NCBI RefSeq assembly: GCF_024700885.2
Contig: NZ_CP117016.1
Strand: one strand, 5' to 3'
Length of the DNA stretch: 64,000 bases
Source: Escherichia coli
Lineage (GTDB): Bacteria; Pseudomonadota; Gammaproteobacteria; Enterobacterales; Enterobacteriaceae
Shown here: piece by piece, positions 1-32,765 of the stretch
How positions within the stretch are numbered: the first letter of the stretch is position 1
Layout of the letters: each line of letters starts with the position of its first letter
Notes under the pieces: generated by a model
Database searches by the model: none
Seen by the model: only the letters and a program-made list of their open reading frames with translations
Told to the model about the DNA's origin: nothing
Translations under genes and position numbers: made by a program

Positions 1-215
1 AGTCAAATTTGTCCAACTTCCCTTGATTAAAAACAACGAGTTTTTTTATAGAAAAGAAAAACTTTCTCGCATAAGCTGAACTAAAATTCACAGCAGTATA
101 GGCAAGGGTCTCTTTTATAGATGCTAATAAGATAGCATTAATGTTTCTTTCAAAATATGAGAAATTTAATTTAACATCTTTGCTGAGAAACCAAACACTA
201 TCATGTAAACTAAAA

Positions 216-1547
216 TTATTTCTGCTGTCTTTTGCCTTTAATACCAAGTAATTTTCTAACATTAATGCTTTCATCTATTTCTCCTTCAATTTTATTTATG
301 ATTTCTTGATTCACTAAATCTGCCTCTTCAAAAGCTTTTAAAGTTTCTTCACTAATATAACGATTGTTATAAATCAAAGCCGTTTTGGAGTTCATTTTCC
401 ACCCCATTCTTACGCATCTGATTCTATCTAATTGGGTCAATCTATATTGATCAGTGACTCCTATGTATTTTAAACTGTAAATATAGTTCCATGTGTGCCG
501 TAGACAATGCCCTGTGAAATTTTGAAAAGATACTCCATTGAATTCAATTCTACTTATTTGCTTAATTACTTTATGATATGCACTTATTGACAGAGGAAAT
601 CCTTCCGTAGGACCAGATTTTTGAGTAATAAATAAGTAATTATGATTTAAGCTTTTCGAATAGAAAGACCTATCATTGTCTATATATGAAGAGATTTGCA
701 TAGACAATTTTTTGCTAATATTTAATTCTCGTTCAAATGTTTTAACAAGTGGTTGAAAAACTCTTGGGTCTGCTGGATCATTTATTCTTTTACAAACTTT
801 CAGATATCTTTTTTCCTTGTTAAAATCAGTAATTTTCAAGTTCAATAGCTCACCCCCTCGCATTCCAGTTTCCTGAAGAATGAGGATTATGAGTTGATTT
901 CTTTTACGGCAACTGATATCAACAAATGGATTGTATTGGCTTTCAGGTTCTATACATTGCAATAGAATGTCTAAGCTTTCTTTTTCTAATGATTTAAAAT
1001 CATTATTCAAATAGAATTGAGAGTTTAATTTTGGTTTATGTTTACGAAAAAGCAAACTAACACTTTTTGATATAATGTTTGTCTCATATATTGTAGTGCT
1101 AAAATATGATTCATAAATCCAAGAAATGTAGGAACTAATTACTGTCAATCTATAATGAAGATTTTCTTGATTGATCTTTTTATACTCTTTTATATCTATA
1201 ACTTTTTGTTTTTTATTTTTAACTCTAAGTTGTTCTGACAATGAATAGATTTCAGTAAAGCTAAGGAAGGTCTTAGATCTAATTCTTTCGATAAGATTTA
1301 TATTTGATTCTATTAGATAATTTTCAAAAGCAATCAAAGTGTAAGCATTTCTCAATACTGTATTAAATGACTTATTCTTTTGCTTATATAGCAAACTAAG
1401 ATATATATTTTGATAATACAATGGCAAACCGTTTTTTGAATCCAAAATCATACAAAATCTGCTTCCATCACTCGCCATTAACTTCTTTACTGAATATCTC
1501 CTATTCATTATCACCCCATAATTTATTTTTTTATTTATAGGTAACAT
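216..1547 (-). mobile_element. Tyrosine site-specific recombinase (phage integrase family), AT-rich foreign gene
   Basis: 443 aa ORF; recombinase motifs seen in translation: ETGMRGGELLNL (box I Arg), GHCLRHTWNY (H-x-x-R), LIYNNRY (candidate catalytic Tyr). Strongly AT-rich codon usage unlike flanking core genes. ATG at 1545-1547. Confidence 0.6.
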
Positions 1548-1626
1548 AATTTTTTAGCAAGTTACAAATTTATTTGCTATTATTTTCAATGACCTTATTA
1601 CTCGCGACTCTAATAAAGAATCGGCC

Positions 1627-1652
1627 ATATATTCACCTTAAGGTGAATATAT
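1627..1652. promoter_or_regulatory. Perfect 26-bp palindrome ATATATTCACCTTAAGGTGAATATAT just upstream of the tRNA cluster; candidate operator or recombinase site
   Basis: Read directly: 11-bp inverted arms around a TTAA centre, followed by TTGACG at 1661-1666. Function unverified. Confidence 0.3.
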
Positions 1653-1680
1653 ATTCCCTCTTGACGCTCCAAAAAACAAT

Positions 1681-1757
1681 GCGGTAGTAGTTCAGTTGGT
1701 CAGAATATTCCCCTGTCACGGGAATGGTCGTGGGTTCGAGTCCCATCTATCGCGCCA
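1681..1757 (+). tRNA. tRNA-Asp (anticodon GUC), island-borne
   Basis: Manual cloverleaf fold: acceptor GCGGTAG/CTATCGC, D arm GTTC/GAAT, anticodon stem TTCCC/GGGAA with loop CTGTCAC, T arm GTGGG-TTCGAGT-CCCAT, discriminator G, encoded CCA. Confidence 0.7.
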
Positions 1758-1761
1758 GAAA

Positions 1762-1836
1762 GGGCAATTAACTCATTGGTAGAGTGTATCTCTTACAAAG
1801 ATATGGCGGTTGGTTCGATTCCAACATTGCCCACCA
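1762..1836 (+). tRNA. tRNA-Val (anticodon UAC), island-borne
   Basis: Manual fold: acceptor GGGCAAT/ATTGCCC, D arm ACTC/GAGT, anticodon stem TATCT/AGATA with loop CTTACAA, T arm GTTGG-TTCGATT-CCAAC, encoded CCA. Differs from the chromosomal E. coli tRNA-Val sequence as recalled. Confidence 0.7.
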
Positions 1837-1847
1837 AAACATAAAAT

Positions 1848-1918
1848 GCGTCAGTATTTCAATGGTAGAATAAAACATTGCCAATGTTTAGGTGAGGGTT
1901 CGATCCCCCTATATTTAC
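1848..1918 (+). tRNA. tRNA-like element with Gly (GCC) anticodon arm; 3-prime acceptor strand not complementary, so possible pseudo-tRNA or recombination remnant
   Basis: D arm TTTC/GAAT, anticodon stem AAACA/TGTTT with loop TTGCCAA, T loop TTCGATC present. 5-prime acceptor GCGTCAG has no complementary 3-prime strand (ATATTTA) and no CCA. Confidence 0.3.
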
Positions 1919-2104
1919 TTTAGTTAGTAACTCATTGATATAAAATAAATAATAGAAAAGTGTAATTTGTTTTGTAAAGCACAAATAAGAAATTAGAAAA
2001 TATTTAAATGTACAGTGTACGAAAAATTAACCAACTATGTTAATGGCAACTATATGATGATAAAATTACTCATCTAACGATCTATATTATATGAGTAATG
2101 TTTC

Positions 2105-2680
2105 ATGGTACGAAAAATCTCTACATTTTTAAAGATAATAGGAGTTATAGGTTCTTTATGCGGGATTATTGCGACAGTATTCACAATCTATGCGTACTAC
2201 AACCCGACCTCCCCTTCTACTCAGAGATATGACAGTATTGTAGGAAGCTGGCTATCTGATTACTCTTACACCGTAAAAGGGAATACCGTTAGGGTTAATG
2301 GAAAAACGACCTTCTTCTCTAATGGAAAATACAACTTTCATGGCAGTATCTCTATTGACTCTAATGCTCCAGGTGACCATATATTAATAGATTATCTTTC
2401 TGATGGTGCTGGTGATTGGGAACTATATGATAATGAGTTAATTACATCATTAAATAGCCTAAAAACAAAACCTATGAAGCTGGCTTTAAATAACGAAGAT
2501 CTTGATCCACTGAAAATAGAGGTGATAAACAATAAAAAGTTACCAACTATTGAGGAGAATATGGCTGATGGGAAAAACCAATCCTATAAAATAATAAAAT
2601 CTTCAAAAAGCCAGTTAACATTGGAGGTTATTAACGAAATCGGAAGCAATTTCAACTTTACTATGCAAAAAACAAAATAG
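2105..2680 (+). CDS. Hypothetical membrane-anchored protein (single N-terminal TM helix), island cargo
   Basis: 191 aa ORF; hydrophobic N-terminus FLKIIGVIGSLCGIIATVFTIYAYY; AT-rich; convergent with the helicase gene and sharing a terminator with it. Confidence 0.45.
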   Translation: MVRKISTFLKIIGVIGSLCGIIATVFTIYAYYNPTSPSTQRYDSIVGSWLSDYSYTVKGNTVRVNGKTTFFSNGKYNFHGSISIDSNAPGDHILIDYLSDGAGDWELYDNELITSLNSLKTKPMKLALNNEDLDPLKIEVINNKKLPTIEENMADGKNQSYKIIKSSKSQLTLEVINEIGSNFNFTMQKTK

Positions 2681-2682
2681 AA

Positions 2683-2714
2683 ATGATGGCGATCTGAAAT
2701 CGCCATCATTTTTC
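2683..2714. terminator. Bidirectional rho-independent terminator between convergent genes
   Basis: Hairpin TGATGGCGAT-cugaa-ATCGCCATCA followed by TTTTT. Confidence 0.5.
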
Positions 2715-4560
2715 AACCTTGATAATCTTCAGCCTCGATACCACAATAAGTTATCATGTTTGTTATTAACGGTATATCATTACAATTCTGCTTGAAAGAC
2801 CTGCCATAACTATTGTTTCTTATTTTACAACGAGTCATTAATACTTCTTCAATGGCTCTTGAAAATGCCACAAAGACTGTTTTTTGATTTTCTATTTGCT
2901 CTTCTTCTTTACCAAAATAGGCACCAGGTTCAAGCCCCACAACGATGACCTTCCTGAACTCTAACCCTTTACTTTTATGGATGGTCATAAGAGGTATTGT
3001 TTTATTGCCAAGTAATAAATCAATGGCTTCTGATGTGTTTTCTTTTACATCTAACTTATCGAGGTGGCGAGAAAGTAATTCTATGCTATATTCTAAAACA
3101 TTCCCACTCATATACTGCGGAAAGTAAGACTTTATTTTATCGACACCAAATATACTTAATAATGAATATAAATAATCGACAATTTCTCCTTTAATTACCC
3201 GATGAGATTTAATAAACTGGCTAAGTTCTTTTTCTAACCGTGTAACATCACCTCTTTTACTTACTCCTCTTATATTACATAGAAGCTCCATTGTAGTGGC
3301 CCAGCTTTCTATGGATTTTCTATTACAGACAAACATTAGCATTTGTAAAAGTAACTGTACTACAGCTTCATTTAAAAGATCCTGATACTCGTTCTCAAGG
3401 CGACATTGTATTTTCAAATATTGCAATGCTGAAATGATATCGTCTGTATATTGTTTAGCCGGGTTTCTTAGCAGTATACATATATCTCTTTCATTTACTC
3501 CTTCAGCAATCCATTGCTGGATACATAATGCTATATATGCCCCTTCAATACTACTTTCGTCAAATTGTAGTAACTTAGCTGAACCTTCATTTTCAATCAA
3601 CATCATATCAGGCTTTATATCAGCATGATTCATGAAAGCTTCCATCATGCGTTGATAATTTATGAGGTTTTTTAATGACCTTCTATTGCTAACTAATTCA
3701 TTAGATTGTTCGATTCCAAAATCTTTTTTAAACACATCAAAAGCATTGTGCATTGCACCTGCCCAACCCATTATTCTTTGTTTTGTATCACCGACTGCTG
3801 TTATTTTTATTTTTTTACCCAAGAAAATGCTCTTAAAAATCTCATATTGCCTATATGTTGTGTCCTGAAACTCATCGATAAAAGCATAGTCATATGTTGA
3901 ATTTATAGCATTAGATAAATATTGATTCCTACTAATAATATAATTAGCAAGAAAATTAATCATCTTGAATGAAATCCTTGATTTTGGTTTTAATAAGTGT
4001 AACCACACAAACCGTCTTATCCTGCCATCAACAGAATGTTCTAATGCTTTATTATAAGGAGTTACTATATAATTCTCTTCAAAATTATAAGGTTGTAATT
4101 TATTTAATTCTTCAGATGTTAAACCTTCAAAGCCTACGGCCTCTCTTTTAATTTCTTCAACTAAATCATTATTATTTGGAAAGATTATTTCATAGTCATT
4201 TGATGGACGATAAGATTCCGGAATAGTGCTTTTAAAGCGATCAACAATACTTTTACAGAATGCATCAAATGTTGTTGATTCAAATTTGTGTCTATATTTT
4301 GTATCAAGCCGTGAGTTTACTCTATCTTGAAGATTTTTGGCCGCATCTTTTTTAAAGGATAATGCAATTATTTTTTTATTGCTGCATTTTCCTGTCTCAA
4401 TCAAGAAACAAGCTTTCTGAGCCAATAATTCTGTTTTACCTGCACCGGGACCAGCAAGAACGAGATTATGCCCTGTACTATTTCGAATTACCCTCATAGC
4501 CTCGTCTTCTACTTCTTGGATATCCTTTAAAACCCAATCGGCATCTTTAATAGTCGGCAT
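2713..4560 (-). CDS. UvrD/PcrA-like superfamily 1 helicase (GajB-like)
   Basis: 615 aa; SF1 helicase motifs in translation: LAGPGAGKTELL (I), IDEFQDTT (II), GDTKQRIMGW (III), VSNRRS (IV), TIHKSKGLEF (V), VAFSRA (VI). ATG overlaps the upstream stop by 1 nt (TAATG). Confidence 0.8.
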   Translation of the reverse strand: MPTIKDADWVLKDIQEVEDEAMRVIRNSTGHNLVLAGPGAGKTELLAQKACFLIETGKCSNKKIIALSFKKDAAKNLQDRVNSRLDTKYRHKFESTTFDAFCKSIVDRFKSTIPESYRPSNDYEIIFPNNNDLVEEIKREAVGFEGLTSEELNKLQPYNFEENYIVTPYNKALEHSVDGRIRRFVWLHLLKPKSRISFKMINFLANYIISRNQYLSNAINSTYDYAFIDEFQDTTYRQYEIFKSIFLGKKIKITAVGDTKQRIMGWAGAMHNAFDVFKKDFGIEQSNELVSNRRSLKNLINYQRMMEAFMNHADIKPDMMLIENEGSAKLLQFDESSIEGAYIALCIQQWIAEGVNERDICILLRNPAKQYTDDIISALQYLKIQCRLENEYQDLLNEAVVQLLLQMLMFVCNRKSIESWATTMELLCNIRGVSKRGDVTRLEKELSQFIKSHRVIKGEIVDYLYSLLSIFGVDKIKSYFPQYMSGNVLEYSIELLSRHLDKLDVKENTSEAIDLLLGNKTIPLMTIHKSKGLEFRKVIVVGLEPGAYFGKEEEQIENQKTVFVAFSRAIEEVLMTRCKIRNNSYGRSFKQNCNDIPLITNMITYCGIEAEDYQG

Positions 4561-6548
4561 TAAAGTAATCCTCTTACTGTTTCGATAATTTCATTAAGAA
4601 CTTCAGGACTATCATCTCTTAACTTATCGTCTTCCATTTTTGATAGAACATAATTGTGCGATAATGGTTTACCTCTTCCTAAAAATAGGTAACGATACCA
4701 AAAATATTTTTCATAATCATCGAACTCACTAATATCAATATCTTTCTCTTCTTTTTTCAAAACTGCAGCAATTGCCGATTTAACTTTATTATCATATTCA
4801 TGATCGTCATCTTTTGGCAATCTTGGCCCACCATTTTTGGGAACAAATGTCTTATAATCCTCAAAGAATTTATTAAGCATTAGCCAATCTAAATCGTAGG
4901 GGTAAGAAAAATAAACATTATAATCTTTTAGACAATTAATCCATGCCGATTCATTATCTTGATCCTCATCCCATGTATGCATTTTTTCAAGCTCTTCATC
5001 ACTTAAAGTTCCTGAAGTAATACTTAACAATTCATTTTTATCTGCACCTATAGATATTAATTGTTTGACTGCATATTTAATTCTTCCCCAACCACCACCT
5101 CCTCCTCTCTTGAAATCATAGTCGAGAAGAGTCACATGTGGAATTGAAAGCTCATTGAGTAACTTCCAAAAATGATTAACATATCGCCCTCCTAATGGAG
5201 CAAATGTTATCAATGAAGTGTCAAGCTCTATACCATTTACTTGAGCTATTTTAGGTATTACTATTTCTTCGCTATCACCTTCACCAAGTATTACAACTTT
5301 TGCAAAATAAATTTCTGGATATGCCTTCACTGCTTCTTTTACATAAGTGAAAGTATCAACATTGTCTCCATCGTCTTCATCTTCGCTTGGTAATAATATT
5401 GGTTTGACAACAGTATTTTTATTATCATGTAGACGAAAATACCTTATATTTTCTGGTTCTACTCTATTGAGTAATGAAGGTGCGTGTGTTGTTAAAACAA
5501 CCTGTGCTCGATCATTCTCAGATATATCTTCACATAGTTTAACTATTCTTCCTAAATATTGGGGTGAAAGATGATTTTCTGGTTCTTCGATTAATATTAT
5601 CGTTAAATTTGGAGGATCTAATGCTTCTACTGATATTGATAATTCATTTTCTCCTGAATTAATGATCTCATCTTCAATATCAAATGCAGATTTGACTAAC
5701 GAAAGATAAAACAATGACTTCATACCATCACTCAATCTTTCAGTTGGTAATGGCTGAGTCACCGGAGTAGGCATAAATACAGTATCTATATGCTTTAATA
5801 CATCTTCTATTCCATTCATTACTGGCTGAATTTTAAGCTGTTCAAAATACCCTCCGCTAAAAAGAGTTTTCCAATTTCTGCCCAATGAAGATGTTATTGT
5901 CTGAACCCCAATTTCTTCTTGGAACTGGTTTCCGATTGATTCTGCAACCTCATCAACCGTTGAACTCATCTGTTCAGACCATTCAACTGCATTTATCAAA
6001 CGGTGCATGATGGTTCCGGCTGTTTGCTTCAGTTGTTGAGCAGGATCGCGATAAGCAGGGACATAATGAACATGGATTTTTGATCTTTCATATGCTGTAA
6101 TATTTTTTTCATATTCTCCTATTTCCCATACTAAATCACTATCTATATCCCCTTCTGCAAGATTAGTTTTTGTCCATTTAGCTTTTAATTTTGCTATACA
6201 GTATGGGATCTGGTCTGCTTCATTTGAGACCAAATGCTTAAAGAAATCAGCGACTGAATCGTCCTCACCATCTTGCAGATCTGCAAATTCAAATTTTACA
6301 CGAACTGATAATTCTCTTTCATCTTGAGTATCGATTTCATCTCCAGGAGGAACATAAAAATCATCAACTTGAACAATTCTATCGGAGCTTTTGACACCAA
6401 ACATCCTTGTCAATGCGAGGAGAACAGCCGTCTTACCTGTTCCATTCCCTCCAATTAAGCTGGTGAATGAATTTATATTTATAGTTTGCCCTACATTATC
6501 AAAGCTCTTAAAACCTTTGATCTCCATTTGTGTAATTTTCATTATCAC
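4560..6548 (-). CDS. OLD-family ABC-type ATPase with C-terminal TOPRIM nuclease domain (GajA-like)
   Basis: 662 aa ORF from a GTG; likelier ATG start at 6542 with GAGGTG Shine-Dalgarno. Walker A GGNGTGKT, ILIEEPENHLSP (Walker B/D-loop typical of OLD ATPases), VLTTHAP (H-loop), TOPRIM-like VVILGEGDSEEIV and LLDYDFKRGGGGGWG. Confidence 0.8.
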   Translation of the reverse strand: MIMKITQMEIKGFKSFDNVGQTININSFTSLIGGNGTGKTAVLLALTRMFGVKSSDRIVQVDDFYVPPGDEIDTQDERELSVRVKFEFADLQDGEDDSVADFFKHLVSNEADQIPYCIAKLKAKWTKTNLAEGDIDSDLVWEIGEYEKNITAYERSKIHVHYVPAYRDPAQQLKQTAGTIMHRLINAVEWSEQMSSTVDEVAESIGNQFQEEIGVQTITSSLGRNWKTLFSGGYFEQLKIQPVMNGIEDVLKHIDTVFMPTPVTQPLPTERLSDGMKSLFYLSLVKSAFDIEDEIINSGENELSISVEALDPPNLTIILIEEPENHLSPQYLGRIVKLCEDISENDRAQVVLTTHAPSLLNRVEPENIRYFRLHDNKNTVVKPILLPSEDEDDGDNVDTFTYVKEAVKAYPEIYFAKVVILGEGDSEEIVIPKIAQVNGIELDTSLITFAPLGGRYVNHFWKLLNELSIPHVTLLDYDFKRGGGGGWGRIKYAVKQLISIGADKNELLSITSGTLSDEELEKMHTWDEDQDNESAWINCLKDYNVYFSYPYDLDWLMLNKFFEDYKTFVPKNGGPRLPKDDDHEYDNKVKSAIAAVLKKEEKDIDISEFDDYEKYFWYRYLFLGRGKPLSHNYVLSKMEDDKLRDDSPEVLNEIIETVRGLL

Positions 6549-7195
6549 CTCAATTGCTGTTTTAAAAAATTATAATCACTAATTATTTCTGCGTTTGTAA
6601 TGATTTCTTGTGAGCACAGCTTAAAACATTCTAAAAATATATTTTTATTATCGTTATGTTCCCAATGTTTTTTCAAAGCTTCTTCAATTGAAATCCAAAT
6701 AACTTGAAAATCGTTATTAGATATTTGGCTTGTTAAAACTGTTTCTTCCACACAAAGTATATGCCCTAAGATGACATCATCGTATATGTCAGTATCTGAA
6801 TCTCTAACTCCTAACCTTTTTATTTTCCTTTTTTGGATGATTTTATTTTTAACAATAAAAGGATGTTCTTCTATAAAATCGGTCAATGATGTAAAAGCCA
6901 AGCCACGAACCTGAGCACCATGCATTGAACTATTTACTTTATGGATATCTCTCCAAACTCGCAGATCACCTAATACATAGAGAACCCGCTGATTTCTCGC
7001 TTTCGTATCTTCTGCTTGGTATTGGATATAAGGTGGCCCTCCCCCATTTTGTCTATATCGGGCAAGGGTTTTGATGCTTATGCCAAGAAAGACAGAAGCA
7101 AGCTCACTATTTACAGTGGCAGAATCAGGCATTTGACCAAATAGTTTCCATACCTCTGAATACTCCCGCAAAACTTCCACCACACTCATCTTCAC
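6545..7195 (-). CDS. HTH-domain protein (excisionase/MerR-like N-terminus plus uncharacterised ~130 aa C-terminal domain), first gene of the defense operon
   Basis: 216 aa ORF (GTG at 7195 or ATG at 7189). N-terminal ELASVFLGISIKTLARYRQNGGGPPYIQY resembles excisionase-type HTH. Starts within 2 nt of the integrase stop and ends 2 nt before the GajA-like start. Confidence 0.5.
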   Translation of the reverse strand: MKMSVVEVLREYSEVWKLFGQMPDSATVNSELASVFLGISIKTLARYRQNGGGPPYIQYQAEDTKARNQRVLYVLGDLRVWRDIHKVNSSMHGAQVRGLAFTSLTDFIEEHPFIVKNKIIQKRKIKRLGVRDSDTDIYDDVILGHILCVEETVLTSQISNNDFQVIWISIEEALKKHWEHNDNKNIFLECFKLCSQEIITNAEIISDYNFLKQQLR

Positions 7196-8655
7196 TCCCT
7201 CGTTTCAGGTAATGGAGGATACTTAGCCGAAGCAAGTAACACATTGTATAATTTAGGAGCAGTCATAAGCATATGCAACTCAATCCTTTGTAATGCTTCA
7301 AAAATCCGTTCTTGATCAGGTTCTGCATACCTTTCTGTTGGATCTGTTGTATTTCTGTGATTGAGCAGTCTCTTAACGACGGCATATGAAACAAGTTCTT
7401 CAGCAACCCTACCAAATGTCCTTCGTAGATCATGCATACCAAGCTTCAGGATTCCCGCCTCTTGGCAGATATATTCCCTTAGACTTTTACTATCGGAATA
7501 GTGACCAACTTTACTTCGAGAAGAACGGGCCGGGAAAACCCACTTCTGTTTGTCCTTCTGGGTTACCGTATCGTTTACTATGTCTCTTCTATCTTCCAAA
7601 ATTCTTTTGACAGCATCACAAATCGGAAGCTCGTGATCGTTTCGATTCTTAGTGTCGTAAAAACGGATAGTTCTGTTACTCAGGTCAACATAGCTTGTCG
7701 TTTTAGCTTCTTCCTTTGTAAGAGACTCTCGCCAACACAGAGAAGCTGTTTCTTCCTTACGAGCACCTAAGAGAACGGTAAGTAGCAGATAATCGCACCC
7801 AAGCCGGTTGAAGCTTCTCTTGTTGAACAATGCAGTCAAGAACCGACCAAGTGTATCCTTTGGTGATAAGGGGTTTCTGACACCTTTTGCCCGATAACTA
7901 TCCTCAAGCTCAGAACGTGTCCTAAACTTTTTCTGTACCTTTAAGATACTGAAAGGGTTGTAAGATAGAGAAGGTTGTCGTTGCTGGGTCTGAGCATTCC
8001 CAGCTTCAATCTCTATTGCGTGTTTTACAGCAACATTCGCCCACCTAAAGGTCTGTTCCGCTGCTGTTCTGGCTCTTGAAGCAATCTCATCAAACTTCCT
8101 AAGAATTTCATTACCAGTAAGATCTTTAACTCGCAAACCAGCCCACTCAGAAAGCCTGTTTTCTGCTTTATCTAATACAGCCAAGGTGTTGGGTTTAGCT
8201 GGTTTCGCTCTACCCAGCAGATGCTGGCGGTATTGTGCAAACACTTCACTGATAGTGAGTTCAGAAGCATCGGACTCCCGTTTTATTTTGTTAGGGTTCC
8301 TTTTGGTCAACTTCATGGTTTGAACTAAATTGCGAGCAACCTCGCGGGCTTGATCGATGTTAGCGAAATCAGAGACATTGCCAATTGTAGACCTGATAAC
8401 CTCAGATGGGGATTTTCCCCCTGTCTTAGGGCGATTGCCAGGAGAAGAGACTCGTCGCTGAACGATATAGGTCTTTTTCGTTGCACTGATTTTGACACCA
8501 AAACCAACGGGTGAATCCCGGTGATTATCAGTGATAAGATACGGTTTTCGCTCTGGATTGGGTAAGTAGACTACTCTGCCTTGCGGATCAAGGCTCGGTT
8601 TCACGTCGATAGATAACTTATTGATTATAATCGACTGATTGAGTGTCATTTTCAT
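7192..8655 (-). mobile_element. int: P4-type tyrosine integrase
   Basis: ORF track 7192..8763; trimmed to internal ATG (MKMTLNQ...) at 8653-8655. N-terminal arm-binding-like region (YLITDNHRDSPVGFGVKISATKKTYIVQRR), box I ARKEE, HDLRRTF, C-terminal ERY. Near-host GC, unlike the cargo. Confidence 0.8.
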
Positions 8656-8658
8656 CGA

Positions 8659-8717
8659 TGTATACCAGTGGTTCAAGTGTGTATACCAGATAGTAGCTAG
8701 AATACTTCTGGTATACA
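8659..8717. repeat. Three copies of TGTATACCAG (two direct, one inverted) at the integrase 5-prime end; candidate integrase-binding or att-associated sites
   Basis: Exact 10-mers at 8659-8668 and 8680-8689 (direct) and 8708-8717 (inverted), between the integrase start and mutS. Confidence 0.45.
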
Positions 8718-8787
8718 AATTTATGGGTTTATGTGAGTTTAAAGGGGTATCACTTGGGGCCACATAAGTACTCAGAAGACTTTAAAA

Positions 8788-11370
8788 ATGAGTAAAATCA
8801 ATATGAAAGAGTCTGCAAGCAAGGATCTATCAGACCACACTCCTATGATGCAGCAATATCTCAAGCTGAAAGCCCAGCATCCCGAGATCCTGCTGTTTTA
8901 CCGGATGGGTGATTTTTATGAACTGTTTTATGACGACGCAAAACGCGCGTCGCAACTGCTGGATATTTCACTGACCAAACGCGGTGCTTCGGCGGGAGAG
9001 CCGATCCCGATGGCGGGGATCCCCTACCATGCGGTGGAAAACTACCTCGCCAAACTGGTGAATCAGGGCGAGTCCGTTGCCATCTGCGAACAAATTGGCG
9101 ATCCGGCGACCAGCAAAGGTCCGGTTGAGCGCAAAGTTGTGCGTATCGTTACGCCAGGCACCATCAGCGATGAAGCCCTGTTGCAGGAGCGTCAGGACAA
9201 CCTGCTGGCGGCTATCTGGCAGGACAGCAAAGGTTTCGGCTACGCGACGCTGGATATCAGTTCCGGGCGTTTTCGCCTGAGCGAACCGGCTGACCGCGAA
9301 ACGATGGCGGCAGAGCTGCAACGCACTAATCCGGCAGAGCTGTTGTATGCAGAAAATTTCGCCGAGATGTCGCTGATTGAAGGTCGTCGCGGACTGCGCC
9401 GTCGCCCGCTATGGGAGTTTGAAATCGACACCGCGCGCCAGCAGTTGAATCTGCAATTTGGCACCCGCGATCTGGTCGGTTTTGGCGTCGAGAACGCGCC
9501 GCGCGGACTTTGTGCTGCCGGTTGTCTGTTGCAGTATGCGAAAGATACCCAACGTACGACTCTGCCGCATATTCGTTCCATCACCATGGAACGTGAGCAG
9601 GACAGCATCATTATGGATGCCGCGACGCGTCGTAATCTGGAAATCACCCAGAACCTGGCGGGTGGTGCGGAAAATACGCTGGCTTCTGTGCTCGACTGCA
9701 CCGTCACGCCGATGGGCAGCCGTATGCTGAAACGCTGGCTGCATATGCCAGTGCGCGATACCCGCGTCTTGCTTGAGCGCCAGCAAACTATTGGCGCATT
9801 GCAGGATTTCACCGCCGAGCTGCAGCCGGTACTGCGTCAGGTCGGCGACCTGGAACGTATTCTGGCGCGTCTGGCTTTACGAACTGCTCGCCCACGCGAT
9901 CTGGCCCGTATGCGTCACGCTTTCCAGCAACTGCCGGAGCTGCGTGCGCTATTAGAAAATGTCGATAGCGCTCCGGTACAGGCGCTGCGTGAAAAAATGG
10001 GCGAGTTTGCCGAGCTGCGCGATCTGCTGGAGCGAGCAATCATCGACACACCGCCAGTGCTGGTACGCGACGGTGGTGTTATCGCACCGGGCTATAACGA
10101 AGAGCTGGATGAGTGGCGCGCGCTGGCTGACGGCGCGACCGATTATCTGGAGCGTCTGGAAGTCCGCGAGCGTGAACGTACTGGCCTGGACACCCTGAAA
10201 GTCGGCTTTAACGCGGTTCATGGTTATTACATTCAGATCAGCCGTGGACAAAGCCATCTGGCACCCATCAATTACATGCGTCGCCAGACGCTGAAAAACG
10301 CCGAGCGCTACATTATTCCAGAGCTAAAAGAGTACGAAGACAAAGTTCTCACTTCAAAAGGCAAAGCACTGGCACTGGAAAAACAGCTTTATGAAGAGTT
10401 GTTCGACCTGCTGTTGCCGCATCTGGAAGCGTTGCAACAGAGCGCGAGCGCGCTGGCGGAACTCGACGTGCTGGTGAACCTGGCAGAACGGGCCTATACG
10501 CTGAACTACACCTGCCCGACCTTTATTGATAAACCGGGTATTCGCATCACCGAAGGCCGCCATCCGGTGGTTGAACAGGTGCTGAATGAGCCGTTTATCG
10601 CCAACCCGCTGAACCTGTCGCCGCAGCGTCGCATGTTGATCATTACCGGTCCGAATATGGGCGGTAAAAGTACCTATATGCGCCAGACCGCACTGATTGC
10701 GCTGATGGCCTACATCGGCAGCTATGTACCGGCACAAAAAGTCGAGATTGGACCTATCGATCGCATCTTTACCCGCGTAGGGGCAGCGGATGATCTGGCA
10801 TCCGGGCGTTCAACCTTTATGGTGGAAATGACCGAAACCGCCAATATTTTACATAACGCCACCGAGTACAGTCTGGTGCTGATGGATGAGATTGGGCGCG
10901 GGACGTCCACTTACGATGGTCTGTCGCTGGCGTGGGCGTGCGCGGAAAATCTGGCGAATAAGATTAAAGCGTTGACACTGTTTGCCACCCACTATTTCGA
11001 GCTGACCCAGTTACCGGAGAAAATGGAAGGCGTCGCCAACGTGCATCTCGATGCGCTGGAGCACGGCGACACCATTGCCTTTATGCACAGCGTGCAGGAT
11101 GGCGCGGCGAGCAAAAGCTACGGCCTGGCGGTTGCAGCTCTGGCAGGCGTGCCAAAAGAGGTTATTAAGCGCGCACGGCAAAAACTGCGTGAGCTGGAAA
11201 GCATTTCGCCGAACGCCGCCGCTACGCAAGTGGATGGTACGCAAATGTCTTTGCTGTCAGTGCCAGAAGAAACGTCGCCTGCGGTCGAGGCACTGGAAAA
11301 CCTCGACCCGGATTCACTGACTCCGCGTCAGGCGCTGGAGTGGATTTATCGCTTGAAGAGTCTGGTGTAA
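8788..11370 (+). CDS. mutS: DNA mismatch repair protein MutS, with a non-K-12 N-terminus
   Basis: 860 aa; near-identical to E. coli MutS from about residue 17 (HTPMMQQYL...). First ~16 residues ([16 protein letters not shown]) differ from the K-12 N-terminus (MSAIENFDA, from memory). Confidence 0.95.
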
Positions 11371-32348: not shown

Positions 32349-32501
32349 CTACTTCTTCGATTCGTAAGCGAGAACTGCCTTAAACTCCATACCACGTTCT
32401 CTGATACTCAACTCACACAACGAGTCGCCTACCATCAGCGTGAATCCCAGTACTGTACAACACAGTACGATGATTGCCACAAGGGCATATTTTGTCAGCA
32501 T
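32349..32501 (-). CDS. Hok/Gef-family type I toxin (small membrane peptide), apparently intact
   Basis: 50 aa [53 protein letters not shown] with the SLCE...AYES signature of Hok/Gef toxins; GGAGG Shine-Dalgarno 6 nt upstream. Not in the ORF track (under 60 aa). Confidence 0.6.
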
Positions 32502-32765
32502 GTCTTGCCTCCCTGCAAAGAAGAGACTAACATTCGAATTGCTTAGGTTCGAACGCTGGCCTCAGGTTGATAGAAATATCGCCTGGGGCTTTTGTCCATC
32601 TGGAACCTCGCGAATGCTTAACGCCAGACAGCCTCAAGCACCCAACTCCATTCTATACCTGTTAATTCTCCCTGCGATGTTCACCTTTAAATGCCGGAAT
32701 GCTGCTCGCAAAATAAAAACGCCCCCATCATTTCTGACAGAGGCGTTTAATTTATCCGGCAATAT

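Follow-up and report, generated by a model that had tools for sequence, protein, structure and literature searches.

Introduction

Among described systems, the closest to the locus reported here are the three-integrase islands termed GInts (Bardaji et al. 2017, PMC5385486). The parts of that account drawn on here describe a ginABCD operon that encodes three integrases and a small protein, together with cargo and a short AT-rich 3' end. They also describe imperfect direct repeats, 6-nt staggered cuts, and an attachment site (attI) that varies once the element has been excised, with the end of ssb as a frequent target. The small protein of GInts, GinD, is of the helix-loop-helix type, and release of a GInt as a circle requires all four genes. 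For tyrosine integrases in general, the T-loop of tRNA genes is a known sublocation of crossover (PMC1762012), and mutS is a reported target of integrative elements (PMC7192596). We analyzed a 64,000-nt stretch of Escherichia coli DNA (contig NZ_CP117016.1 of NCBI RefSeq assembly GCF_024700885.2), hereafter the window, in which an island in mutS carries part of a tRNA-Gly(GCC) gene next to a trio of recombinase genes. A conservative exchange between a site on this island and the T-loop of a foreign tRNA-Gly split that gene and captured one unit of its tRNA array, a block of 250 bp whose two ends are the halves of the split gene.

A split tRNA-Gly gene

An earlier note on this DNA had described a tRNA-like element at 1848-1918 with a recognizable core, a Gly-GCC anticodon arm, an unpaired acceptor stem, and no CCA. 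It had read the element as a tRNA in which a past integration had put other sequence in place of the 3' end, and thus as a possible internal recombination scar. The structural description was borne out by Rfam, ARAGORN, and counts of base pairs. The anticodon arm (AAACA/TTGCCAA/TGTTT, anticodon GCC) is intact; with the native 3' flank, ATCCCCCTATATTTAC, the T stem forms 4 of its 5 pairs and the acceptor stem 2 of its 7, and this flank contains no CCA. The covariance model search that the note had proposed found no valid cloverleaf. Rfam RF00005 matched model positions 8-63 only (window 1855-1910) with 34.4 bits, which exceeds the gathering score of 29 bits as a local, partial match only. ARAGORN called the neighboring tRNA-Asp and tRNA-Val and made no call at 1848-1918. 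With its acceptor unpaired and no ARAGORN call, the element lacks the complete cloverleaf of a functional RF00005 tRNA gene.

The start given in the earlier note stands, and the end does not: the tRNA-derived part stops at 1902 (or at 1904, as the bases AT are ambiguous), and the sequence from 1903 onward is island backbone. The resulting 5' fragment comprises the acceptor 5' strand, D arm, anticodon arm, T-stem 5' strand, and nucleotides 1-4 of the T-loop. An intact homolog, which the note had suggested looking for, was found as a tRNA-Gly(GCC) gene on two metagenome contigs, L012 and L094. All 55 nt of the fragment are identical (100%) to the 5' part of this gene, which rules out a chance resemblance to a tRNA. 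The fragment is the dead half of a split gene and has no function as a tRNA.

The missing 3' segment, also among the things to be sought according to the note, lies on the same strand, 195 nt upstream. This 3' fragment supplies ATT to complete the T-loop, CCCTC as the T-stem 3' strand, and TTGACGC as the acceptor 3' strand, along with U73 and CCA. Together with the 5' fragment, it gives a 74-nt tRNA-Gly(GCC) with all stems paired, which ARAGORN called; the native arrangement, run in parallel, was not called. Among the 127,962 positions scanned in the window, both strands included, three offered all 12 stem pairs, and only one of these, 1653, also has CCA. The 3' fragment and the spacer that follows it, AAAAACAAT, are identical to the 3' end of the intact gene on L012 and L094.

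At the left junction of the block, directly 3' of a perfect 26-bp palindrome, ATATATTCACCTTAAGGTGAATATAT is followed by ATTCCCTCTTGACGCTCCA; at the right junction, inside the Gly T-loop, ...GAGGGTTCG is followed by ATCCCCCTATATTTAC. In the tRNA, both junctions coincide in the T-loop, between G57 and T59, and the part of the gene missing at one junction stands at the other and completes the cloverleaf. From left to right, the block is a circularly permuted array unit: 19 nt of the Gly 3' end, a spacer of 9, tRNA-Asp (77), 4, tRNA-Val (75), 11, and 55 nt of the Gly 5' end. The tRNA-Asp and tRNA-Val genes were captured together with the block. A promoter and terminator scan of 1400-2300 found sites no commoner than in shuffled sequence and is uninformative on the expression of these two genes.

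Occupied and empty sites in related islands

The 701 bases around the element matched 16 complete E. coli chromosomes by megablast: four across the whole region, nine in two pieces that lack about 250 bases, and three in the left part only. In phages and plasmids, the tRNA block had no megablast match, and a sensitive mode gave generic tRNA similarity only. Alignment to strain NCTC8623 showed that exactly the block is absent there, with a junction ambiguity of 2 bases (AT). The site was recovered from all 16 E. coli islands and from one Dickeya island; it is uninterrupted in 12 of the former and in Dickeya and filled in four. The recipient site thus exists in uninterrupted form, the empty site being the filled site minus exactly 250 bp.

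The empty islands include some with other cargo (the defense systems DRT3 and Qat) and with left flanks only about 73 to 95% identical. Because these diverged outgroup islands are uninterrupted, the empty site is ancestral and the block is an insertion. All block-bearing islands fall in the group whose site has the 6-bp spacer ATCCCC. The four filled islands share identical junctions despite right flanks that are just 83% identical, and a single base of the block distinguishes the two filled lineages. One filled island matches NCTC8623 at 99.85% identity on the left and 99.98% on the right, yet NCTC8623 lacks exactly the block.

No backbone bases were gained or lost at the insertion. Since the backbone is unchanged and both junctions lie at one point of the tRNA, the event was a reciprocal, conservative exchange. 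Transposition was rejected, as there is no target duplication at the block, and so were two independent illegitimate joints, against which the signature of conservative exchange speaks. We also rejected position 1653 as the left boundary of the variable defense cargo, because conservation runs about 100 bp further right in the DRT3 and Qat variants.

Source of the captured unit

A scan of metagenome contigs for the Gly core returned two records, L011 and L012. The first is the same island, with the block present and identical junctions. The second (1,350 bp) carries, in order, tRNA-Asp, GAAA, tRNA-Val, AAACATAAAAT, an intact tRNA-Gly(GCC), and the spacer AAAAACAAT; its tRNA-Gly is identical to the gene reconstructed from the two fragments and matches the full Rfam model with 64.5 bits. 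A pilin-like open reading frame (ORF) beside this array led to the longer contig L094, which carries a 12-tRNA array. The intact donor gene is therefore found, identical, within Asp/Val/Gly arrays on both contigs. Upstream spacer apart, L094 and the block of E. coli strain 4/4 are identical across 231 aligned bases. The tRNA-Val of the window is identical to that of L094, and its tRNA-Asp differs by one base from the L094 copy just upstream of Val-Gly, which we label Asp(b); the copy just downstream of Gly is labeled Asp(c). The donor array is repetitive, with near-identical tRNA-Asp genes on both sides of Val-Gly, and unit content differs between L012 and L094.

Contig L094 also encodes NrdD and NrdG, components of a phosphotransferase system, and a kinase-phosphatase-RNA ligase fusion. 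The NrdD protein shares 76% identity with that of Serratia and about 71% with that of Morganella. Based on this gene content and these identities, the donor appears to be the chromosome of an uncultured, AT-rich bacterium of the Enterobacterales. Species-representative genomes contained no exact match for the Gly core, and the donor turned up in metagenomes only; viral contigs gave no match to the exact 5'-core pattern. Giant-virus contigs were considered as a source and rejected: four matched the predicted T-arm/acceptor junction, but their gene is a different one, a tRNA-Gly(TCC) with just the last 24 nt in common. In these metagenome bins (L007-L010), the 24 nt, GAGGGTTCGATTCCCTCTTGACGC, are exact in the reconstructed tRNA-Gly(GCC), and the remainder of the gene differs.

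Other features of the tRNA genes were recorded. Window position 1709 (tRNA-Asp position 27) is T, where the donor arrays and strain 4/4 have C, and a C-A mismatch at the top of the anticodon stem becomes a U-A pair. At 1111-1188 of both L012 and L094, between two tRNA-Asp genes, is a tRNA-like gene with an odd anticodon loop (Rfam, 52.4 bits) that ARAGORN left unassigned. The fused protein of L094 (AAA_33 + Metallophos + RNA_lig_T4_1) is encoded a few kilobases from the tRNA array.

Architecture of the putative attachment site

The empty site reads TTAAGGTGAATATAT ATCCCC CTATATTTACCTTAG, with two inverted arms around a 6-bp spacer, and the site restored by removal of the block would be GAATATATATCCCCCTATA. 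The 15-bp arms are complementary at 12 of 15 positions in the CTATATTTACCTTAG form found in most relatives and at 11 of 15 in the window, where T stands for one C. The spacer varies among relatives (ATCCCC, AACCCC, ACCCCC, AGCCCC, AGTCCC), and the arms are conserved. Its tRNA counterpart, ATTCCC at 1653-1658, is identical to ATCCCC at five of six positions. In the island backbone, too, both junctions fall at a single point, which is this spacer. Relative to the first gene of a tandem trio of tyrosine recombinases, the crossover is about 145 bp upstream.

All 16 E. coli islands keep the palindrome that contains the left arm, as do relatives in Dickeya, Photorhabdus, and Citrobacter, in which the first recombinase is only 35 to 65% identical. 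The Photorhabdus and Citrobacter relatives (first recombinase about 35% identical) keep AGGTGAATA-N12-TATTTACCT. To the right, patches of the AT-rich stretch that we read as the P' arm are conserved with the relatives that carry DRT3 or Qat cargo and with Dickeya, Citrobacter, and Photorhabdus. In ssb-type relatives, the junction at the ssb stop has a TYACCT...KGTRAA motif pair 2-5 nt away; in the window, TYACCT and KGTRAA motifs form the palindrome, 5 nt from the crossover. Judged from these motifs, the palindrome would correspond to the ssb-site pair, which supports the view that the block sits in a canonical core. We rejected a homology between the palindrome and GC-rich hairpins upstream of the first gene in distant relatives, as those are terminators following ssb.

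The island of 19KM2415N is a mosaic, NCTC8623-like on the left and Dickeya-like on the right, and the switch lies in a 13-bp interval immediately right of the variable bases of the spacer. By its position in the sequence, this breakpoint would fit recombination at the site.

The junctions of the scar sit in the putative attachment-site core of a three-recombinase (GInt-type) module, and the earlier proposal is thereby sharpened. That the tRNA lost its 3' end to a past integration is supported by the recovered tail, the empty sites, and the intact donor gene. The internal scar itself was correctly recognized; it has two junctions rather than one, and these bracket a captured 250-bp unit of a foreign array.

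As a separate observation, a 26- to 30-nt motif, TGTACGAAAAATTAACCAACTATGTTAATG, occurs in the AT-rich stretch right of the attachment site (window 2016-2045) and three times in the relaxase-side part of the island (10333-10362, 11192-11217, and 11228-11253 of island record L001). A related motif, GTACGAAAAAT, occurs near window 2108. These motifs may be protein-binding repeats.

The recombinase trio

The three trio genes overlap on the minus strand, and the third recombinase gene and a small fourth ORF lie beyond the window. In two island records (L001 and L002), a 127-aa ORF overlaps the end of the third gene. The third protein, as a single sequence, has no match in Pfam, NCBIfam, PHROGs, PADLOC, or PDB. 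Across its family (713 representatives), the pattern R...K...HxxRH...W...Y is kept, and 13 of 45 homologues match PF00589. Because of this pattern in the family alignment, rather than a single-sequence match, the third protein is predicted to belong to the tyrosine recombinases.

Several features agree with those of GInts. There are three consecutive tyrosine recombinase genes. In distant Proteobacteria relatives, the trio directly follows chromosomal uvrA-MFS-ssb, an order seen in L066 and L089. The codons for the C-terminal DDDIPF of ssb and the stop are preserved in many of the relative loci, such that the relatives are inserted at the ssb end with the protein unaltered. The junction repeats in the inverted-arm site are imperfect (ATTCCC/ATCCCC), and the exchange was presumably staggered by 6 nt. 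Given the architecture, the shared ssb target, and relatives in Pseudomonas and Stutzerimonas, we infer by analogy that the trio is a GInt-type gin operon.

The idea that the trio family usually adjoins tRNA genes was rejected, as none of 80 relatives has an adjacent tRNA gene. Ten relatives from other Enterobacterales (L018, L028, L037, L038, L040-L043, L060, and L072) have a tRNA-Leu, -Thr, or -Arg gene on the attachment-site side of the trio, about 2.9-5.2 kb upstream of its first gene. A tRNA gene at a distance of about 3-5 kb is probably the target of a second integrase. This suggests that the pairing of a three-integrase module with a second integrase that targets a tRNA gene or mutS is recurrent.

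Mechanism and alternatives

As a full explanation of the locus, we consider it likely that the dead tRNA-Gly was split, and the foreign array unit captured, by a GInt-type conservative exchange at an internal attI. The arms and spacer would be the attI of a GInt-type element, left internal when the element entered E. coli through the mutS-targeting integrase borne in its cargo. The element would previously have resided in another host, an uncultured, AT-rich bacterium of the Enterobacterales whose Asp/Val/Gly tRNA array is repetitive, and would there have integrated in the T-loop of tRNA-Gly (ATTCCC, matching the spacer at five of six bases) by a conservative tyrosine-recombinase exchange. It could have left by homologous recombination between the repeated tRNA genes that flanked it, or via a neighboring Gly copy as a second site. 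The exiting element would have carried one array unit between two hybrid sites. Alternatively, a captured 250-bp circle would lead to an identical structure. The block would be removed exactly if the two hybrid sites recombined with each other, which fits the near-identical, block-free NCTC8623. The island site does not hold a tRNA 3' end and so did not restore the tRNA gene; this looks like use of a secondary site.

Some points weigh against this reading. Outside the 6-bp spacer, the tRNA and the island site resemble each other only weakly: an AGGTGA motif is offset by 1 nt, and the right arm is unmatched. The unit order Gly-AAAAACAAT-Asp(b) was found on no donor contig, and in L012 and L094 it is the diverged Asp(c) that follows Gly. 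No island copy integrated in a tRNA-Gly was found. The history of the block may have been either one gain followed by loss or two gains. The 19KM2415N breakpoint is also compatible with homologous recombination in a conserved patch of about 53 bp. The attribution of the event to the gin-like genes draws on position and analogy, and the GInt assignment was likewise made by analogy.

The alternative that survives best, though we regard it as improbable, involves no site-specific recombinase: microhomology-driven illegitimate recombination or template switching at a fragile palindrome, with the tRNA T-arm hairpin as a chance partner. The junction homology amounts to just AT plus CCC, a perfect 26-bp palindrome abuts the left junction, and the arms resemble the tRNA poorly, all as this account would have it. 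However, the event was reciprocal and conservative on both partners, at the same phosphodiester position and with no insertion or deletion. Diverged islands share identical junctions, and a near-identical strain shows a precise absence. Moreover, the exchange point is central between conserved inverted arms and lies beside recombinases of a family for which 6-nt staggered cuts are documented in the cited parts of the GInt account.

A tyrosine recombinase other than the adjacent trio, for example, the mutS integrase, the host XerCD, or an integrase of the donor genome, is very unlikely to have been the catalyst. The island does encode four tyrosine recombinases, and the role of the trio at the site is a predicted one. 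Against this, the core used by the mutS integrase, ATGATGCAGCA, is unrelated, and the position of the site relative to the first trio gene is constant across relatives, down to 35% protein identity. The site is also unlike the E. coli dif sequence, which would count against XerCD.

Still less likely is that the block is ancestral, with empty islands arising by deletion between short repeats and the tRNA-Gly truncated by an earlier, unrelated event. Four of the six ATCCCC-clade islands are filled, so a single gain followed by loss is possible inside that clade. This alternative is already largely refuted: the outgroups, including Dickeya, Photorhabdus, and Citrobacter, all have an uninterrupted inverted-arm site, truncation cannot yield the permuted order with a native Gly-spacer-Asp joint, and the block is identical to a foreign chromosomal array.

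Finally, a working permuted or split gene, with two RNA pieces joined or annealed into a functional tRNA-Gly, is extremely unlikely. The 3' piece does lie upstream of the 5' piece on the same strand, 12 base pairs are possible between them, and the rejoined tRNA carries the bacterial Gly identity elements (G1-C72, C2-G71, G3-C70, U73). Two complete tRNAs and spacers (176 nt) separate the pieces, however, where a functional permuted tRNA would be a single pre-tRNA of 3' half then 5' half; the donor has an ordinary intact gene; and most sister islands do not have the block. To our knowledge, permuted tRNA genes occur only in some algae and archaea and need a splicing endonuclease that bacteria lack.

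The host island and its cargo

Compared with an empty E. coli locus (L013), the island is an 18.6-kb insertion in the 5' end of mutS (8746-27335 of L001; approximately 1-8858 of the window). The window begins inside the island, and the left part of the island lies beyond it. The insertion is flanked by an imperfect 24-bp direct repeat (the 24-bp overlap of L013 and L001), and the right-hand copy in the window differs by one base from that in L001. The island provides a replacement N terminus for MutS. It carries an annotated relaxase gene and is therefore probably mobilizable. In the simplest reading, a circular GInt-type element entered mutS via the second integrase, and its own attachment site was thus left intact and internal in most copies. 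The coordinates of the features are collected in Table 1.

The cargo slot that holds a Gabija system in the window holds DRT3 or Qat in sister islands, and this alternation identifies it as an exchangeable position for defense cargo. IS1 copies struck the island independently (15380-16077 of L001; 3603-4300 of L098). An IS1 truncates the third recombinase gene in CFSAN061761, and another lies in the region of a 191-aa ORF in strain 23AR0998. The annotation of the island copy in SCU-308 is heavily fragmented. Well outside the island, the window encodes a full-length sok antitoxin RNA (32486-32643, minus strand; RF01794, 111.7 bits), which implies a chromosomal hok/sok locus.

Table 1. Features of the locus in the window, in order of position (strand as + or -;. 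for features given no strand)
Feature	Position	Strand	Basis
Second recombinase gene, ginB-like, start only (window edge)	1..274	-	Annotation (L001/L002); protein matches PF00589
First tyrosine recombinase gene, ginA-like, 430 aa	216..1508	-	Pfam PF00589, 51 bits; annotation
Perfect 26-bp palindrome, ATATATTCACCTTAAGGTGAATATAT	1627..1652	.	Sequence reading
Left arm of putative attachment-site core, TTAAGGTGAATATAT, right half of palindrome	1638-1652	.	
Inserted block, 250 bp	1653..1902	+	NCTC8623 alignment; 16 E. coli islands; Dickeya
tRNA-Gly 3' fragment, ATTCCCTCTTGACGCTCCA, A58-A76, 19 nt	1653..1671	+	ARAGORN on joined pieces; pair scan; identity to L012/L094
tRNA-Asp(GTC), intact, CCA encoded	1681..1757	+	ARAGORN; Rfam full model, 66.6 bits
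tRNA-Val(TAC), intact, CCA encoded	1762..1836	+	ARAGORN; Rfam full model, 67.8 bits
tRNA-Gly(GCC) 5' fragment, G1-G57, 55 nt	1848..1902	+	Rfam local match; identity to L012/L094 gene
Central (crossover) region, 6 bp, ATCCCC	1903..1908	.	Junction mapping
AT-rich noncoding stretch with conserved patches, read as element 3'-end arm (P')	1903..2104	.	Conservation in relatives
Right arm, CTATATTTACTTTAG, inverted copy of TTAAGGTGAATATAT	1909..1923	.	Sequence reading
Gabija pair, complete (GajB, 659 bits; GajA, 798 bits)	2713-6542	-	PADLOC
Second, separate integrase, 487 aa, at right island end next to mutS	7192..8655	-	PF00589, 45 bits; annotation
attR, right-hand direct repeat, core ATGATGCAGCA, inside mutS 5' end	8835..8858	+	Comparison of L013 and L001

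Significance

The tRNA fragment is inert and has no consequence for translation; its value is that of a natural footprint. The scar maps a crossover point to within 2 nt and reveals the site, with its inverted arms and 6-bp spacer, of a three-integrase (GInt-type) module of E. coli that is experimentally unstudied. It indicates that such a module can reside, with its own attachment site intact, within an island placed in mutS by a second integrase. It also documents capture of host DNA at this site, in the form of two intact tRNA genes with an identifiable donor lineage.

More speculatively, and we think it doubtful, the hybrid sites that flank the 250-bp unit may still be substrates of the trio, which would make the unit an excisable mini-cassette that is precisely gained and lost between near-identical strains. 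If so, the locus would offer a natural snapshot of host DNA acquisition by GInt-type elements, which would enter one copy of a repeated, hairpin-like target (here a tRNA T arm) and leave via its neighbor. The internal attachment site of islands parked by a second integrase would then be a standing capture site. Strains CFSAN061761, MLI114, and NCTC8623 are available for questions of which recombinases act, whether the block can be excised, and how cargo is picked up.

Comparison with known systems

Like GInts (PMC5385486, in the parts considered here), the module has a tandem of three overlapping tyrosine recombinase genes with a small ORF after them, as well as cargo and an AT-rich 3' stretch, with relatives at the very end of ssb. 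It also shares with them imperfect short junction repeats, a 6-bp exchange region, and an attachment core that varies between copies. Unlike GInts, the element is not integrated via its own site and is instead circularly permuted inside a mutS island beside a second integrase. It carries a relaxase and has 250 bp of captured host tRNA genes inserted in its own site, and a tRNA T-loop is not among the targets that those parts of the GInt account describe.

In common with T-loop class II sites (Williams 2002; mycobacteriophage Ms6, PMC1762012), crossover took place in a 7-nt T-loop flanked by a symmetric T stem, with the break between G57 and T59. In classical T-loop elements, an attP copy of the tRNA 3' end restores the gene. 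Here, in contrast, the island shares five of six bases with the tRNA, the backbone ATCCCCCTATATTTAC cannot pair with the 5' strand in the manner of an attP identity block, and the gene was destroyed.

The module also resembles Gamma-Mobile-Trio (GMT) islands (bioRxiv 10.1101/2023.03.28.534373) in having a gene trio at its border, defense-rich cargo, a circular intermediate, and targets with inverted repeats and a critical spacer. The GmtX of those islands, however, is described not as a recombinase but as a protein whose function is unknown and which has a predicted DNA-binding region. Membership in this group was rejected: the first gene scores 26.8 bits against a GmtY cutoff of 340, and no GmtZ or GmtX match was found at E<=0.01 (NCBIfam).

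In its exit with adjacent host DNA through sites that are not an att pair, the proposed event would be like the aberrant excision that gives lambda gal/bio transducing phages, or F-prime formation via flanking repeats. Unlike these, both hybrid junctions were kept within the element, and the capture is exactly one unit of a tandem-like tRNA array, leaving a circularly permuted gene. The permuted tRNA genes of Cyanidioschyzon merolae, said to have been described by Soma et al. in 2007, likewise have the coding sequence for the tRNA 3' part ahead of that for the 5' part. Those genes are reportedly single transcription units, processed through a circular RNA with a splicing endonuclease; in the present locus, two other tRNAs separate the parts, and DNA recombination produced the arrangement. 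The fragment is ordinary in kind, a piece of a tRNA gene at a recombination junction. What is unusual is the configuration, in which the element contains both junctions with a permuted array unit between them, and the GInt-type core is nested in a mutS island.

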